DNA from: a phage
Sequence record: PZ445428.1
Strand: one strand, 5' to 3'
DNA length: 64,000 nt
Under the pieces are notes generated by a model. It was not told where the DNA came from. It worked only from the letters and a program-made list of their open reading frames with translations, and did no database searches. Every line of letters starts with the position of its first letter. The first letter of the stretch is position 1. Positions 1 to 53,610 of this stretch are shown here, in pieces. The position numbers were made by a program, and so were the translations under genes.

Positions 1-1317
1 ATGGAAGTCTCAAGACCGTATATTAACACTACGGATATTATTGACTTTGGTATAGACAAGCGATTCTTTCGTCTACCAGTCTCTAGCATCCTAGCCCAAG
101 AGGGGATTATACCTAATGCCCCTCAGGTAGCAATTATTAATGCTCTAGAAGATCCTAGGCATCGTTTCGTAACAGCATGTGTATCACGTCGTGTAGGTAA
201 GTCATTCATAGCATATACACTTGGGTTCTTAAAACTTCTGGAACCCAATGTAAAAGTACTAGTAGTTGCACCTAACTACTCATTGGCCAACATCGGTTGG
301 TCACAGATTCGTGGTCTTATTAAGAAGTATGGATTGCAGACTGAACGTGAGAACGCCAAAGATAAAGAGATTGAGCTGGCAAACGGCTCGCTCTTCAAAC
401 TGGCTTCTGCGGCACAAGCTGACTCCGCGGTTGGACGTTCGTATGATTTCATCATCTTTGACGAAGCAGCGATTTCCGACGTTGGTGGTGCAGCATTTGA
501 CATTCAGCTACGTCCTACTCTAGATAAGCCAAACTCTAAAGCTCTATTTATCTCTACTCCTCGTGGTGGTAACTGGTTTAAAGAGTTCTATGAGAAAGGG
601 TTTAACGAAACGTTACCTGGCTGGGTATCTATTCATGGTACATATCGTGACAACCCACGTGCTGACCTGAACGATATCGAGGAGGCGCGTCGTACTGTTA
701 GTAAAAACTATTTCCGCCAAGAGTATGAGGCTGACTTCTCCGTATTCGAAGGTCAGATCTTTGATACCTTTAATGCTATTGAGCACGTTAAAGATCTCAA
801 GGGTATGCGTCACTTCTTTAAAGATGATGAAGCATTCGAAACGTTACTTGGTATTGACGTTGGTTATCGTGACCCAACAGCTGTTCTTACTATCAAATAT
901 CATTACGATACCGATATCTACTACGTACTGGAAGAGTATCAACAGGCAGAGAAAACTACTGCCCAACATGCTGCTTATATCCAGCACTGTATAGATCGTT
1001 ATAACGTTGACCGTATATTTGTAGACTCCGCTGCTGCTCAGTTCCGTCAGGACTTAGCATACGAACACGAGATCGCTTCTGCACCCGCTAAGAAATCTGT
1101 CCTAGATGGTTTAGCATGCCTGCAAGCACTCTTCCAGCAGGGTAAGATCATCGTAGATGCTTCATGCACCTCATTGATTCACGCACTGGCCAACTACAAA
1201 TGGGACTTCCAAGAAGGTGAAGAAAAATTATCACGTGAAAAACCACGTCATGATGCAAGTTCACACCTTTGTGACGCCCTGCGTTATGGAATTTACTCAA
1301 TTTCCCGTGGGAAATAA
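1..1317 (+). CDS. Terminase large subunit (ATPase/nuclease); N-terminus may be cut by the window edge
   Basis: 438-aa ORF with Walker A-like VSRRVGKSF and acidic Walker B-like FIIFDEAA; sits directly upstream of portal in a head-morphogenesis order. Confidence 0.8.
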   Translation: MEVSRPYINTTDIIDFGIDKRFFRLPVSSILAQEGIIPNAPQVAIINALEDPRHRFVTACVSRRVGKSFIAYTLGFLKLLEPNVKVLVVAPNYSLANIGWSQIRGLIKKYGLQTERENAKDKEIELANGSLFKLASAAQADSAVGRSYDFIIFDEAAISDVGGAAFDIQLRPTLDKPNSKALFISTPRGGNWFKEFYEKGFNETLPGWVSIHGTYRDNPRADLNDIEEARRTVSKNYFRQEYEADFSVFEGQIFDTFNAIEHVKDLKGMRHFFKDDEAFETLLGIDVGYRDPTAVLTIKYHYDTDIYYVLEEYQQAEKTTAQHAAYIQHCIDRYNVDRIFVDSAAAQFRQDLAYEHEIASAPAKKSVLDGLACLQALFQQGKIIVDASCTSLIHALANYKWDFQEGEEKLSREKPRHDASSHLCDALRYGIYSISRGK

Positions 1318-42205: not shown

Positions 42206-42234
42206 AATTGATCCTCTCATCAATTTATATAAAT

Positions 42235-42263
42235 ATTATATATTAAAATTGAGCTGAAAGCAA
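42235..42263 (-). promoter_or_regulatory. Early promoter cassette
   Basis: Minus strand TTGCTT-17 nt-TATAAT then ATTTATATAAATTGATGAGAGGA and ATG 42205. Confidence 0.5.
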
Positions 42264-43394: not shown

Positions 43395-43452
43395 ATTTTT
43401 GAATTTCCTTAATTAAGAATTAAACAGAATAGTTCTTTCAAACTATGAGAAT

Positions 43453-43481
43453 ATTATATCAAGAATTACAGGATTAAGCAA
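43453..43481 (-). promoter_or_regulatory. Early promoter
   Basis: Minus strand TTGCTT-17 nt-TATAAT; -35 overlaps a short palindrome ACTGAAA..TTTCAGT. Confidence 0.5.
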
Positions 43482-43731
43482 CTGAAATTTTTCAGTAACT
43501 GCTACACATCAAGCTCAACGATCTCCCAATCATCGGCCAGTGCTTCTTCTAGGGTCAGCTCACACACTTCGTCACTAGGCATTAGTGACGTATCGGAGGG
43601 CATCCACACGTACTGGCGTACGGTGTTGCTATCTACGAAGAATTTCAGGATTACTGTGTAATCCTTGTTGTTTTCCCAACTAGTCCGCTGGAGATATTTT
43701 TACGTCTCTAGCTTTTAACAGATCAGTTAAT

Positions 43732-44504: not shown

Positions 44505-44738
44505 TTACGATTCCTTGAGCAAAGAAGCCAGCTCAGCATAAACTTTATCTAACTCAAATCCAACGCGAAGGGACACACGAGTCTTCCGTTGTTTCAGAAG
44601 CCATATAGATACGTTAGGGATACCAGCGAGACGAGGTGGTACAACCCTACATAACTTTTCCGCAGTGTCATATCCGGAACGTTTACTCTCTTTTACGGGG
44701 AACTTCCTTGTTTCCCATTTTTTATTCTTCGCTGTCAT
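44505..44738 (-). CDS. Hypothetical small protein
   Basis: Start moved to internal ATG 44738 (MTAKNKK) after GGGAG; track ORF begins at 44789. Confidence 0.25.
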   Translation of the reverse strand: MTAKNKKWETRKFPVKESKRSGYDTAEKLCRVVPPRLAGIPNVSIWLLKQRKTRVSLRVGFELDKVYAELASLLKES

Positions 44739-47577
44739 TTCTAGCTCCCAGTTCTGCCAAAGCCTCTTCATGCATCTGACGTTCTTCATCAGTCATGAAC
44801 TTAACTGGAATCGGCATACACTCGATCTTACAGTAAGTTCTGTACCAGTCCACAATCTTTTCTGTATCCAAATCCTTTCCGATACCCATCATTCCCAAGT
44901 ACATACGAGCATACTTTGGGTTTGCACTCTGACCTGTTTTAAGGAAGAAATCTTTCTTCTTACCTTTCAGAGCTTCGATAAATGGTTTGATTGTGACATT
45001 TGAACACTTCTTAATATCTTCCCAGAACATCTCGTGCATCTTATGGAAGAATGCAGCCCGATCGTTTGGTTTATCCTTGATATACTGTTCAACATGTTCA
45101 ACTGTTACATCTTTAATAGAATCAAGATGATAGTAACGAACTAGCAGAAGTTTTGCTTCATAAGCATCAGCATGACGTGGTGCACAATAATCAGGAGTTG
45201 AGTGCAGGATAGCTTTAATTCGCTCTTCTGTGTACTCTTTGTTTGCACCTTCGATAGTCCCCCAGCTTTCACTGAAGATATCAATAGTCGCACCCTGATC
45301 AAGCAGATAATAGCGTAGAGTACTAGTATAATTCCTAGACTCCAGCTCACGACGACGTGCATAAAGTTGCTGTGCTAACTCAATCCAACCTTCGTCAATA
45401 TTATACTGCTCGGAACCCGCAGAAAATCCACTTGTAGACTTATCAATAAAGTAATAGATATTCTGAGCACCACGGTCGCGCCTGATTGCTTGAAAACGCA
45501 TGTTTGGCGCTTGGTTACTGGTTCGAGTAATAACGAATACGTTATCGAAATAGTTAAAGTCAACCCCACTCGTTACAGAGGGACTACATAATAAACAATC
45601 AATCTGCTGATCAATTAGCTCATTAGTTGTGTAATCCAGAATACGACGAATATCCACATCTGATGTGGAATTTGAGTGAATTTCTTTAACTAACGCACCA
45701 GTATTACGACGTAACGCCATACCTTTTTCGTTCAGTTCATCCGGACCACAGTCAGATACTAGGATAGATTTCTCACCCATCTCTAGAGATGTTTGTAAGG
45801 CAACCCAAATGCTGGATTCATCAGGGAACTCATAAGCATGAGCTTTTGCCAGCATTTTACGGTGATGATTATAGAACGCTACCGGTTTATCAAAGTCGAT
45901 CAGAGAGCCATAGGCTTCAATCGTTTCAGCACTAATATCACCATCAGACAGAATAACTGTTTTAGCTGTCATGAGAATATCACGAAGAACCTGAATACAT
46001 TCACGACGGTTCTTAACAACTGGAGCAAACAACAGGTCATTCATTACCGCGTCACATTCATCGATAAAGATTGTATCAATCTGACCAACAAAACTCTTGA
46101 ATTTATGGATTGAGTGAATCGTAGTTGACATACGATCAATCGCACCACGCTTGAAGTTCAGCATATCTACAGACTTATCATACTGACCAGCACTAAATTT
46201 CTTTGCGTTTGAAGATACCAGAGCACGAGTGTTTGTTACCGCGATGAAATTCCCAGGAAGAACGCCAGCATCCAGCCACTTCGTTACCGCCGTAGTTTTA
46301 CCTGTACCAAGACTTGCCTTAACAAATGTTAGGTGATCTTTTGGAGGTACAATGTTAATCTTCAGATATGGGACTTCCGCTGGAGAATCCGTATTTAACT
46401 GTTTTAGAGGAACACCTTTCAAGTTTTGTGGAATATCTCTACGACTATTGTTAACAAACGCTTTTAACGCCTGTTTACGACCGTTATTGAAGTAATCCTG
46501 AATATTACGACTATTATCTTTAGTTGCAATGTATTCAGACAAGGCAGGTTTAATCTCACGTTCTAACCACGCAAAATCAACACCATCCTCTAACGCTCGG
46601 TGATATAGTTTTGGAATAATACGCAGGTACACTCCATCCTCAGCTTCTTCTAATTCGCTGATGGTTTCCTCTACTTTTTCAGAAGCAGCCTTCTTACCTT
46701 TGATTTGATCGAGTAAAGAGTAGAACTCTTCTTTGAACTCACCCCTAGTTGTTTCATAGTCAACTAGGTTGTTTGGCAGATTTACTTTCGAACCCTTAAC
46801 ATACACAAGGCGTGGCTTATTCTCCGCTTTAAACGGATCAACTATACCATCGCTAAATAAAGGGTCGGCAAAATAGTGAAGCTGTACAGAAGAATAATAA
46901 GCTAAGTCAGCAATATCAAAACCATACTTTTGCTTACTACTATCGTTGATAGACGTAAATAAGAACTTTAACTGTCCCTGCGTCACCTTAACATTAGATT
47001 CCAGCATTAAGTGCATTCGGATACCTGATTTTAATCCAGCCGAAGACGATGCATGAGCAATAAACCCTGCATCAAGAGGAAACATATCCTCACTAATACT
47101 ATGTAACATCTTAATGATATGACGTGCCATGCCAACAAGATTAAACTTGTCGTAACCACCAGTATCCTGAATACCATCCACGTCCATTGCAATAATGTGA
47201 CTAGGATTAGAAACGTTAAAGTTTCCACGAGTACGACGGACATTATCCTTTGGAGCCAAACATTTACCACGAATAGCCACAATATGAGGATCTTGGGTTA
47301 GCCTACGCATAATAGGCAGCATTTCAGCAAGGCTTTGCGGGTCAAGCTCTTCAAGTACATCAAATTTGAAGGGCATGGAAGCTGGTTTACCTTCCGGATG
47401 CTCTTTCGAGAATCGCTTAGCAAAGGTGTAATCTTCCACTTTAATTTCTTTCCAGATGCCTGTTGCTTTATCTCTGGAAAATCCTGCATGACCTTGTAGG
47501 ATTGAGAACACAACAATACTCCTATGCTGGTTATTCGAATACTTTTCTTTAGGACTATTCAAAAAAGAATAGAACAA
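44722..47577 (-). CDS. Replication initiator-like protein (N-terminal primase-polymerase-like region plus P-loop NTPase/helicase)
   Basis: 951 aa; Walker A LGTGKTTAV and Walker B IFIDECDAV in C-terminal half; N-terminal IAMDVDGI acidic motif; start codon uncertain (TTG, no clear SD). Confidence 0.55.
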   Translation of the reverse strand: MFYSFLNSPKEKYSNNQHRSIVVFSILQGHAGFSRDKATGIWKEIKVEDYTFAKRFSKEHPEGKPASMPFKFDVLEELDPQSLAEMLPIMRRLTQDPHIVAIRGKCLAPKDNVRRTRGNFNVSNPSHIIAMDVDGIQDTGGYDKFNLVGMARHIIKMLHSISEDMFPLDAGFIAHASSSAGLKSGIRMHLMLESNVKVTQGQLKFLFTSINDSSKQKYGFDIADLAYYSSVQLHYFADPLFSDGIVDPFKAENKPRLVYVKGSKVNLPNNLVDYETTRGEFKEEFYSLLDQIKGKKAASEKVEETISELEEAEDGVYLRIIPKLYHRALEDGVDFAWLEREIKPALSEYIATKDNSRNIQDYFNNGRKQALKAFVNNSRRDIPQNLKGVPLKQLNTDSPAEVPYLKINIVPPKDHLTFVKASLGTGKTTAVTKWLDAGVLPGNFIAVTNTRALVSSNAKKFSAGQYDKSVDMLNFKRGAIDRMSTTIHSIHKFKSFVGQIDTIFIDECDAVMNDLLFAPVVKNRRECIQVLRDILMTAKTVILSDGDISAETIEAYGSLIDFDKPVAFYNHHRKMLAKAHAYEFPDESSIWVALQTSLEMGEKSILVSDCGPDELNEKGMALRRNTGALVKEIHSNSTSDVDIRRILDYTTNELIDQQIDCLLCSPSVTSGVDFNYFDNVFVITRTSNQAPNMRFQAIRRDRGAQNIYYFIDKSTSGFSAGSEQYNIDEGWIELAQQLYARRRELESRNYTSTLRYYLLDQGATIDIFSESWGTIEGANKEYTEERIKAILHSTPDYCAPRHADAYEAKLLLVRYYHLDSIKDVTVEHVEQYIKDKPNDRAAFFHKMHEMFWEDIKKCSNVTIKPFIEALKGKKKDFFLKTGQSANPKYARMYLGMMGIGKDLDTEKIVDWYRTYCKIECMPIPVKFMTDEERQMHEEALAELGARNDSEE

Positions 47578-48010
47578 CTATTACTAACGTCAACACAAAT
47601 ATTAATCATCATCAAGCAGTATGGATAAGTTACCATACCTCAGTGCTGTGCTCTCTATACTCATATCCAGAATAGAAATTAGGTCTATCGGCCGCTAAGC
47701 CATTTCTATTTGTCCTCACTATCCTATTGGTAGGTGACTACTGGACGTGTTACCATTCGCAGCTCTTTTCGTTCGCACCCCCATAAAAGCCTCTCCCTAT
47801 CTAACGAAGCTAATATGCACGGTTTGGATTTACCTTTCCGAATTCAGGGTACACAGATCACTTAATTGACAACCAACTAATATCGTATAAACATTAGTAA
47901 TAGTTAAAACAACCTTTAATGGGGCAGCCGAACTGTTCCGTATTGCGGATTGTAAACAAGAAAAATTAGTAAAATCAATTTTTACTAATGTCTCTCAATT
48001 CAATATAAAT

Positions 48011-48039
48011 ATTATATCAACTTTTGGAGCATCCTGCAA
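48011..48039 (-). promoter_or_regulatory. Early promoter cassette at the distal end of the 550-bp ORF-free region
   Basis: Minus strand TTGCAG-17 nt-TATAAT then ATTTATATTGAATTGAGAGA. Confidence 0.45.
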
Positions 48040-48130
48040 GTAAAATTTTCCCGACGGTGCTATCAGTGGCCTTGAGTACGGAGAAAACCGAGCCAAAGTG
48101 ACTCGGTAATCAGGATTGTGCTAAGGAAAA

Positions 48131-48538
48131 TCAATCATCATTTAGACCTGGAACATAGATTCCAATACGGTTTAATTGATGTTTGGCTTCTTCGAGAATA
48201 TCTGGAGTGTACTCCCAAATATCATCTTCCACAAATAACAAATAAGGGGACTCACCTGTTTCGGGGTCACGTGTAATGGCGTAACCGCGTGGGTGGAACA
48301 GGGAGAAGTTTAGGGCAACAATAAGACCCATACGAGATAGCTCATTCCAGTGCATCTCAAAATCTACAGGAACATCATTTTGATCTCTACTGGTAACAAA
48401 GATTCCTAGACAAGGATCTGTCGGGTCAGTAAAGGGGAAAGTTACACTAACCTTTTCAACCCCCAACCAACGTGCAAGGAGCCCTTCAGCCCGCTCCACT
48501 AAACTAGGATCAATAAGACGCCAAGATACTTGTTCCAT
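48131..48538 (-). CDS. Hypothetical protein (paralogue of 48549-48977)
   Basis: 135 aa, strong AAAGGAGG RBS; shares C-terminal motifs with neighbour. Confidence 0.4.
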   Translation of the reverse strand: MEQVSWRLIDPSLVERAEGLLARWLGVEKVSVTFPFTDPTDPCLGIFVTSRDQNDVPVDFEMHWNELSRMGLIVALNFSLFHPRGYAITRDPETGESPYLLFVEDDIWEYTPDILEEAKHQLNRIGIYVPGLNDD

Positions 48539-48548
48539 TCTGCCTCCT

Positions 48549-48977
48549 TTAAGCAGTTAAACCAGGGATCTGATAGCCGAAATGACGCAGCTTCTGGATA
48601 CCCTCATTTATTTCTTCGGGCGAATAATGCCAGCCCTCACGTTCATTTACCTGGAAAGCCGGAGCCTCCCCATTACGATAGTTTACTATCAAACGATGTT
48701 TAATAGGCATGAACAGTTTGTAGTTCAATGCAAAAACCAATCCCATGTAGTCCAGTTCTTTCCAGTCTACAATCTCTTCTACCCCATCTTCCAACATTAC
48801 ACTGATACCAATGCAGCTAGCTTCATCAGAGTCTGAAGTAAACGCGAAAGCAATCTCATTATTCTCACACCAAATCTTGAGAGTATTAATGGCTTCCTCA
48901 AACAGATTATCCGGCAGAGAACGCCAGAAGTTGATAAGAAGTGGATTGATATTGGTTTCAAATAGGTTATTAAACAT
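48549..48977 (-). CDS. Hypothetical protein (paralogue of 48131-48538)
   Basis: 142 aa; shares MGLxxALNxxLFxP and VPGL/IPGL motifs with neighbour. Confidence 0.4.
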   Translation of the reverse strand: MFNNLFETNINPLLINFWRSLPDNLFEEAINTLKIWCENNEIAFAFTSDSDEASCIGISVMLEDGVEEIVDWKELDYMGLVFALNYKLFMPIKHRLIVNYRNGEAPAFQVNEREGWHYSPEEINEGIQKLRHFGYQIPGLTA

Positions 48978-53250: not shown

Positions 53251-53279
53251 TATATTCTCCTTCTCTAACTAAGACTACT

Positions 53280-53308
53280 ATTATAGCTCATTTGAAGGCG
53301 TATGTCAA
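53280..53308 (-). promoter_or_regulatory. Sigma70-type promoter for nrdD (divergent from phoH promoters)
   Basis: Minus strand TTGACA-17 nt-TATAAT then GAGAAGGAG RBS. Confidence 0.55.
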
Positions 53309-53366
53309 TATAAATTTTCTAAAGAGCTAAGTAACTTGATCTGGCTCAATTTTTGGAAAATTGTTG

Positions 53367-53396
53367 TTGACACCTTACCCTATTTTATACTATAAT
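53367..53396 (+). promoter_or_regulatory. Sigma70-type promoter (phoH operon, distal)
   Basis: TTGACA-18 nt-TATAAT. Confidence 0.5.
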
Positions 53397-53508
53397 CCCG
53401 CGCCCATGTACGCGATATAAAATGATTATCTAGTATCATACATCTCCCTCTATAAGCAAGCAAATTTTTTATTTAACTGCAATGTCATAGGCTTATTTAA
53501 AATTGTAG

Positions 53509-53537
53509 TTGCTTTTTACTGTAGATATTGGTATAAT
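53509..53537 (+). promoter_or_regulatory. Sigma70-type promoter with extended -10 (phoH operon, proximal)
   Basis: TTGCTT-17 nt-TATAAT preceded by TGG (TGn-type extended -10). Confidence 0.45.
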
Positions 53538-53610
53538 ATATTTGTAAGTTGATAAACAAGATCTTTTTGTTGATCCTCTGTTAGCGAAGTACACTATAGG
53601 AGTGTTATTT

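Follow-up and report, generated by a model that had tools for sequence, protein, structure and literature searches.

A large structured RNA that may form the cis-acting leader of the D2 helicase messenger RNA in T5-like phages

What occupies a long gap in front of a phage helicase gene is the question raised by positions 47578 to 48130 of the DNA analysed here, a stretch of 64,000 nucleotides (nt; sequence record PZ445428.1) that is called the window throughout. The list of open reading frames (ORFs) of the window contains no ORF of 60 amino acids (aa) or more across these positions in any of the six frames. The gap of 553 nt, described in the initial annotation as an ORF-free region of about 550 base pairs (bp), is indeed the longest such stretch internal to the window, the runners-up being 351 nt and 337 nt long, and one of 591 nt that abuts the end of the window is an edge artefact. 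The region matches Escherichia phage TrudiGerster (Bas27, MZ501108; Demerecviridae, a T5-like Epseptimavirus) at 100% identity, and a window position equals the MZ501108 position minus 480. The local genes are on the minus strand, and the gene downstream of the gap is D2, a homologue of T5.108. The initial annotation preferred a replication origin and named a structured leader or noncoding RNA (ncRNA) as the alternative, and it is the alternative that has held, in the form of a minus-strand structured RNA contiguous with the D2 messenger RNA (mRNA). The region very probably specifies a conserved structured sense RNA. The reading that we favour, with a probability of about 0.5, is that this large structured RNA serves in cis as the 5' leader of the D2 mRNA. 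A promoter cassette, a covarying fold, sense polarity, purifying selection, the lack of a conserved ORF and linkage to D2 are demonstrated for the leader, and a cis-regulatory role of the leader in D2 synthesis is proposed tentatively.

The leader RNA of about 430–450 nt has at least 12 helices, two of which are nested long-range helices. In the order of the minus strand, a terminator-like hairpin is followed by the early-promoter cassette, an untranslated leader of about 490 nt and D2. The elements are given below in this order; RNA position p corresponds to window position 48005 minus p, and the helices from P1 to P10 are those of the TrudiGerster model.

48082–48107, minus strand: terminator-like hairpin ACCGAG-UCACUUUGG-CUCGGU followed by UUUCU, seen in the sequence, which ends the upstream operon just 5' of the promoter
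48009–48039, minus strand: T5-type early sigma-70 promoter, with the -35 element TTGCAG at 48039–48034, a 17-nt spacer, the -10 element TATAAT at 48016–48011 and an ATATT-type discriminator
47957–47997, minus strand: P1, 5'-terminal long hairpin UGAGAGA-C-AUUAGUAAAA ... UUUUACUAAU-U-UUUUCUU, supported by covariation
47909–47953, minus strand: P2, stem with covarying closing pairs around the near-invariant motif ACGGAACAGUUCGGCUGCCCC (47941–47921)
47862–47914, minus strand: 5' strand of the long-range rod P3, with the core AACUAUUAC at 47905–47897, pairing with 47574–47618
47852–47861, minus strand: 5' strand of P5, GUG-AU-CUGUG with a conserved AU bulge, pairing with 47643–47650
47776–47851, minus strand: P6, UACCC (47851–47847) with GGGUG (47780–47776), and inner hairpins, supported by covariation
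47665–47746, minus strand: P8o, GUCCAG (47746–47741) with CUGGAU (47670–47665), enclosing a hairpin at 47737–47716 and P8
47671–47710, minus strand: P8, AAUAGAAAU/AUUUCUAUU, the inverted repeat of the initial annotation, supported by covariation
47643–47650, minus strand: 3' strand of P5, CACAG-CAC, pairing with 47852–47861
47619–47638, minus strand: P9, hairpin GUAUGG-UAACUUAU-CCAUAC, supported by covariation
47574–47618, minus strand: 3' strand of P3, with the core GUAAUAGUU at 47584–47576, closing a domain of about 330 nt
47555–47572, minus strand: P10, hairpin CUAUUC-UUUUUU-GAAUAG directly after P3, supported by covariation
47509–47522, minus strand: Shine–Dalgarno sequence GGAG (47522–47519) and GTG start codon (47511–47509) of D2, seen in the sequence
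44722–47511, minus strand: D2 gene, 929 aa, the T5 D2 bipolar helicase or 'replication origin binding protein', UL9-like according to annotation, Pfam and PHROG

The leaders of the Markadamsvirinae fall into two subtypes, A and B, which have the same helix plan and unrelated central sequences (leaders L022–L032, L043 and L054–L059 compared with window 47620–47860), and the type B leader is nearer to the Klebsiella and Pectobacterium versions. Covariation was analysed with anchor-segmented MAFFT alignments plus hand-curated helix arms. Uncurated MAFFT alignments analysed by RNAalifold recover P3, P5, P6, P8o, P8 and P9 in type A (n = 8), with compensatory changes at 12 pairs and almost no pair broken, and show the same architecture in type B (n = 10), which has a different central sequence and adds 7 further compensatory pairs. 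MAFFT failed to register the P8 module or P1 across lineages, and a descriptor search was used for P8 instead. For the curated set, the arms of ten helices were extracted by hand from 10 variants of 6 lineages. These ten helices are 96–100% paired within a variant as against 44–76% if 5' and 3' arms of different variants are combined. In the gap-free curated alignment, 98.4% of the cells are paired, as against 69.2% after shuffling, with 0 of 500 shuffles attaining the observed value; fitting of this alignment to the helices by hand inflates the observed percentage. Of its 47 pairs, 42 change on both sides, and sliding the partners by 1–3 columns leaves 28–45% of the cells paired. Folding and covariation analysis against related phages, proposed in the initial annotation as a check, has thus revealed a fold that is kept by compensatory changes in six or more lineages.

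When the sequences between the promoter and the D2 start are aligned, the 5' GAGAG, the P2 motif, GCUUAGCGG and a GUUGCCACC-like loop form invariant islands, and the sequences between the islands vary by lineage yet stay complementary. P1 has the compensatory variants UUAGACAA/UUGUCUAA in DU_PP_V and GAGAG/CUCUC in Klebsiella phages. The P2 motif (ACGGAAC...) contains a small hairpin, CAGU-UCG-GCUG, and the pairs closing P2 appear as AAU/AUU, GAU/AUC, CAU/AUG, UAU/AUA and UAC/GUA. In the 10 variants of the 6 lineages, the homologous segments form a P3 duplex with energies between -24 and -36 kcal/mol, and all 9 pairs of the P3 core have changes on both sides; P3 is recovered by RNAalifold without curation and was also found in an inverted-repeat search. 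P5 occurs as six different sequences, all with a plan of 3 bp, bulge and 5 bp, and has undergone independent compensatory changes inside type A and inside type B. P6, whose inner hairpins are exemplified by AGCUUC...GAGGCU at 47811–47788, varies as ACCC/GGGU, CCCG/CGGG, GCGG/CCGC, UUCG/CGAA and GCCG/CGGC. P8o is GUCCAG/CUGGAU as opposed to GUACAG/CUGUAU in T5-type sequences, and a CG pair passes through UG to UA within type B. The initial annotation had located a 9-bp inverted repeat near 47672–47712; the repeat, AATAGAAAT/ATTTCTATT, lies at 47671–47679 and 47702–47710, is 100% complementary and corresponds to helix P8, which encloses the hairpin GGC-UUAGCG-GCC (47701–47690, the invariant GCUUAGCGG) and a 10-nt 3' bulge. 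The loop of P9 and the (A)GUUGCCACC loop found in other lineages are related. P10, with the variants CUAUC/GAUAG, UUUCC/GGAAA and ACUAU/AUAGU, is located 45–60 nt upstream of the D2 ribosome-binding site and is not a terminator because it has no U-tract.

Insertions and deletions respect the fold, being placed at the hairpin tip of P1 or in the linker between P1 and P2. An insert of 97 nt with its own hairpin, AUUUACGG/CCGUAAAU, is present in this linker (after RNA position 39–47) in L021, L023 and L043, and S126, ende and bastian, which give two-piece matches, were grouped with them. The presence of this insert in leaders of both types, A and B, suggests exchange by recombination. The oselot phage has an 18-nt triplication at the P1 tip.

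The curated helices contain G.U in 24 cells and A.C in 1 cell. Each G.U pair corresponds to an A.C mismatch on the opposite strand, and therefore only the minus (sense) strand can fold; cruciforms and symmetrical duplex sites are thereby excluded. The minimum free energy z-scores, -3.3 for the sense and -3.0 for the antisense strand, do not discriminate between the strands.

The initial annotation had also called a conserved early promoter at 48011–48039 on the minus strand. This promoter is confirmed by the cassette TTGC-N18-20-TATAATAT, which has 10 copies in the window compared with 0.05 expected, all co-oriented with the local genes, and by the T5 annotation, in which a rho-independent terminator and a promoter at the homologous place are followed by about 470 nt without features. 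Early promoters of T5 typically have such an ATATT discriminator (PMC7472727). The ten cassette copies span window 32268–62066, with examples at 43451–43481 and 53509–53539. The two copies compared with the annotation, at 42233–42263 and 43451–43481, are followed by leaders of at most about 50 nt, and so the 490-nt leader is exceptional. Judging from the promoter sequence, transcription would start near 48004, and the fold starts 7 nt past this predicted site in all lineages, including those in which the promoter has been replaced. In some Markadamsvirinae (L017, L020, L030, L033, L059 and L062), a replacement promoter, TTGCAAGGGAGTATTATTTTATAGTATAAT (about 1074–1103 or 1173–1202), accompanies a different upstream gene, and L033 has a tandem duplication of the promoter plus P1. 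The predicted transcript of the promoter-replaced phages still starts just 5' of GAGAGA in P1. No terminator-like site is predicted between 48004 and 47511, and therefore transcription should read from the fold into D2. No attenuator is predicted in the leader, nor is any promoter-like site on its plus (antisense) strand. The stem of the terminator-like hairpin upstream of the promoter is itself kept by compensatory changes in the Klebsiella, Pectobacterium and L061 relatives.

The 3' boundary of the region is set by the start of D2. The initial annotation gave D2 951 aa and an unclear TTG start without a Shine–Dalgarno sequence; this is incorrect, as the gene starts with the GTG at 47511, 7 nt 3' of GGAG, in agreement with the GenBank annotation of 929 aa. 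The N-terminal sequence MFSIL is conserved in all relatives, and the in-frame extension up to the TTG at 47577 is not conserved among them. Since D2 starts at GTG 47511, the true intergenic region is 47512–48130, which is 619 bp long. The product of T5.108 has been studied biochemically as the bipolar helicase D2, related to herpesvirus UL9 (PMC3632103). Consistently, D2 of the window matches Pfam Herpes_ori_bp at residues 387–533 and a 'replication origin binding' PHROG, so that the helicase assignment of the initial annotation stands on Pfam and PHROG; its primase-polymerase-like N-terminus is not confirmed, the N-terminal 380 or so residues having no Pfam or PDB sequence match. A single-sequence AlphaFold model of the N-terminus is unusable, with a predicted local distance difference test score of 39. 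Invariant residues in this part of D2, D-x-D (D110 and D112) and S-x-x-G...H167, look primase-polymerase-like by eye only.

The arrangement of upstream operon, terminator-like hairpin, early promoter, long gap and D2 homologue is found across the family, with gaps of 530–890 bp in the Markadamsvirinae, Sugarlandvirus, Myunavirus/Hongcheonvirus, Priunavirus, the Proteus phages and the metagenomic lineage L061; a metagenome scan for D2 relatives contributed 17 loci. In about 60 loci of Enterobacterales phages, the fold is never split from D2 by an inserted gene and its distance to the start codon is constant, and the leader subtype, A or B, tracks the D2 clade. Between TrudiGerster and T5 the leader is 88% identical, compared with 64% at the third codon positions of D2 and 53% at those of the upstream gene. 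The leader thus evolves more slowly than synonymous sites, indicating purifying selection on this non-coding DNA. Across the lineages, the leader has no conserved ORF or reading frame, so that homologues give no sign of a missed protein-coding gene, the outcome that the initial annotation had set against its own proposal.

In IMG/VR, the P2 motif with UUAGCGG 214–224 nt further 3' occurs only in T5-like genomes, and 17 other matches to the P2 motif do not have the second motif and look like chance. The descriptor of the P8 module finds it in every lineage of Enterobacterales phages, including the Providencia and Proteus phages; elsewhere, it has a single weak match in 1.6 Mb, AGATTTCTTAGCGGGTGCAGAAGCGATCT at window positions of about 1064–1092 (minus strand) with a 2-bp inner stem, which is probably due to chance. 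Vibrio and marine relatives have gaps of 290–1170 bp before the D2 homologue, with leaders of 290–1100 nt that are GC-richer and ORF-poor (L008 706–1416, L051 429–1530, L047/L064 about 1266–1650, L070 100–540), with a GAGUGACUAACC-like motif in common. No second copy of the element was found in the window. The comparison with tRNA and ncRNA models that the initial annotation suggested gave no match: none of the 4227 models of Rfam 15 matches the 64-kb window at gathering scores, a permissive search of the region itself yields only three noise matches to eukaryotic small nucleolar RNA and microRNA models (E of at least 0.13), eight homologous loci from other genera have no Rfam match at E of 1 or less, and ARAGORN finds no gene for transfer RNA or transfer-messenger RNA in the window. 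Literature searches found no description of this RNA. The leader RNA is apparently a new, undescribed family of structured RNA specific to the T5-like phages of Enterobacterales.

A plausible course of events under the cis-acting reading is as follows. The host RNA polymerase would initiate at the T5 early promoter, near 48004 and just before P1, and the transcript would fold into P1, P2 and then the domain of about 330 nt that is closed by P3 and contains the nested P5, P6, P8o and P8, together with P9. P10 would fold last, upstream of the D2 ribosome-binding site, and transcription would run on into D2. The fold, probably bound by a protein, for which D2 itself is the obvious candidate, or by a small ligand, may set the amount of D2. 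The likeliest route would be a choice made by the pyrimidine-rich 5' arm of P10 between two partners, the 3' arm of P10 and the Shine–Dalgarno region; P10 is possibly an anti-Shine–Dalgarno or anti-anti-Shine–Dalgarno element and would then act as a putative expression platform. Protection of the long untranslated leader against Rho or RNase E may be a further effect of the fold.

Several points weigh against this reading. Partition-function folds show no partner of the Shine–Dalgarno sequence that is consistent across lineages, and since the 5' arm of P10 is complementary to the Shine–Dalgarno region in TrudiGerster, the Klebsiella phages and DU_PP_V only, the proposed switch depends on complementarity in some lineages. 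The start and the 3' end of the transcript, and how stable it would be, are predictions, and any ligand or protein partner is putative. The inflation that came with hand-fitting of the curated alignment is offset only partly by the uncurated alignments. The P8 descriptor has no match in the Vibrio phages, and the homology of their long leaders is unproven. Finally, the ornate fold of 450 nt is far larger than known translational operators, which leaves room for another function. Alternative pairings of the P1 with the P3 arms, and of the 5' flank of P3 with the 3' arm of P10, were considered and set aside as too weakly conserved for a switch to be claimed.

If another function exists, the RNA could be a stable trans-acting ncRNA that is cut from the leader and serves as a cofactor of D2 or another machine, as phi29 pRNA does, or as a decoy for host defence, its position before D2 reflecting shared early expression only. 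The size, the number of junctions and the invariant loops are nearer to the large ornate ncRNAs than to translational operators, the rod P3 holds the two ends of the domain together, a feature of many stable RNAs, and there is no consistent interaction with the D2 ribosome-binding site. We nevertheless regard a trans-acting RNA as unlikely, because neither a terminator nor an evident processing signal is seen past P10, the unbroken linkage and constant distance to D2 would not be needed by an RNA acting in trans, and the leader subtype follows the D2 clade. The palindromes could also belong to a duplex or single-stranded DNA element, as protein sites or as a cruciform or hairpin resembling the oriS hairpin that UL9 of herpes simplex virus (HSV) recognises. 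D2 is UL9-like, the P8 palindrome with its GC-rich core resembles a binding site, and single-stranded DNA of the sense strand would give identical covariation, but the ratio of 24 to 1 (G.T instead of G.U in DNA) excludes symmetrical cruciform and duplex sites. DNA is also disfavoured by the nesting of helices over 330 nt, with multiway junctions and unpaired motifs that are invariant, and by the 5' end of the fold, which in every lineage stays coupled to the promoter, including those with a replaced promoter. A promoter-tied multi-junction fold of 430 nt is far more simply RNA than sense-strand single-stranded DNA. A DNA element is therefore very improbable. Even less credible is a missed gene or a small leader peptide, for which the best example is a 21-codon ATG ORF at 47784–47719, MGVRTKRAANGNTSSSHLPIG, preceded by GGAGAGG in both TrudiGerster and T5. 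Leaders of type B and those of the Klebsiella, Pectobacterium and L061 lineages do not contain this ORF, its ATGGGGGTG shares nucleotides with the 3' strand of P6, and substitutions track base-pairing and have no codon periodicity; the ORF was rejected, no ORF or frame being common to the lineages.

The replication origin preferred by the initial annotation survives mainly in the form of an origin RNA, a transcript that primes the leading strand as a persistent RNA–DNA hybrid or that recruits or loads the helicase D2. Models for such RNAs are RNA II of ColE1 and the R-loops of T4 oriF and oriG. The element lies immediately upstream of the gene of a UL9-like 'origin binding' helicase, and it is located at about 48.6% of the T5 genome, whose origins have been placed 'near the centre' by electron microscopy. 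Coverage data of the T5-like phage Bas33 suggest two internal replication origins, for which the source states no coordinates. A strong promoter about 490 nt before the gene and a high degree of structure recall ColE1 RNA II, and RNA positions 1–50 are AT-rich (20% GC), the same nucleotides forming the covarying hairpin P1. On the other side, iterons or repeated binding sites were not found at the locus, which has only weak two-copy direct repeats, and pairing is strand-specific. The locus has no GC-skew switch, the switches being at about 26 kb and 53.5 kb, although GC skew is uninformative about an origin because it tracks the direction of transcription in this genome. Neither an antisense promoter of the RNA I type nor a pronounced G-rich tract that would form an R-loop is predicted or seen, and stable intramolecular folding opposes R-loop formation. 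With a DnaG-like primase and a DnaB-like helicase of its own, T5 does not require a primer made by RNA polymerase. An origin RNA thus appears doubtful, and it is equally improbable that the fold represents a large ornate phage RNA of a new class, working as an RNA component of T5 replication initiation. If it did, the transcript would be recognised by D2, loaded on it or extended by it, and would define the long-sought T5 origin. The cis-acting leader of the D2 mRNA remains our preferred reading.

The surroundings of the locus provide some further observations. The gene upstream of the region, 48131–48538 on the minus strand, matches Pfam DUF7415; of the two upstream genes, the Pfam scan covered this one only. 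In oselot, the homologues of this gene and of its upstream neighbour (48549–48977) are both labelled VOG3964, and the two genes may be tandem paralogues on account of this common label. The next-longest ORF-free stretches of the window are 43395–43731 (337 nt) and 53251–53601 (351 nt). The latter is a divergent-promoter region between nrdD and phoH in which the GC skew changes sign, and it is a further candidate for an origin.

T5 is a classic model phage, and the gap of 0.6 kb is blank in the annotation of T5 and of the relatives examined. Among known systems, the favoured reading has its closest counterparts in autoregulatory leaders, such as the 361-nt 5' untranslated region of E. coli rne and the translational operators of T4 gene 32 and gene 43. 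As in these, the fold lies in the untranslated leader of a gene for a nucleic-acid enzyme with no terminator in between; in contrast to them, the T5-like element is much larger and more branched, with at least 12 helices, including the two nested long-range ones, shows no consistent pairing with the ribosome-binding site and has no relationship in sequence or in Rfam. The leaders of plasmid initiator genes, R1 repA with CopT and the pseudoknot leaders of IncB and IncI-alpha repZ, are likewise long and structured and precede a gene for replication initiation, and their folding decides initiator synthesis. R1 repA and repZ use an antisense RNA and a leader peptide, whereas the T5-like leader has neither an antisense promoter nor a conserved ORF.

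ColE1 RNA II, T4 oriF and oriG and the R-loop origins of T7 share with the element a promoter about 0.5 kb upstream, a structured transcript and a place in a replication region, but the T5-like leader differs from ColE1 RNA II and the R-loop origins in having no RNA I-type promoter and no G-rich tract, and its transcript enters a protein gene. The HSV-1 oriS/oriS* hairpin resembles it in having a UL9-like protein, here encoded next door, and a palindrome, P8 being the most conserved module; it differs in that the T5-like fold is strand-specific, extends over about 430 nt from the promoter and has no repeated sites like the UL9 box that could be found. The ssNA-helicase motif reportedly described by Weinberg et al. 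in 2017, a small structured nucleic-acid candidate upstream of helicase genes, is alike only in genomic context, the T5-like leader having no match in Rfam, where the motif is represented. With OLE, GOLLD, ROOL, raiA, HEARO and phi29 pRNA, the leader has in common a length of several hundred nt, many covarying helices and invariant loops. Unlike the large ornate ncRNAs, it is fused to an mRNA, is not a free gene and is restricted to T5-like phages, and it has no Rfam match to OLE, GOLLD, ROOL, raiA or HEARO even at E up to 10 (pRNA was outside this comparison). It is one of the larger phage RNAs supported by covariation and is tied strictly to the helicase thought to start T5 replication. It offers RNA biologists a new RNA family, gives a handle on the control of D2 expression and on the start of T5 replication, and can be used as a conserved marker of the Demerecviridae that infect Enterobacterales.

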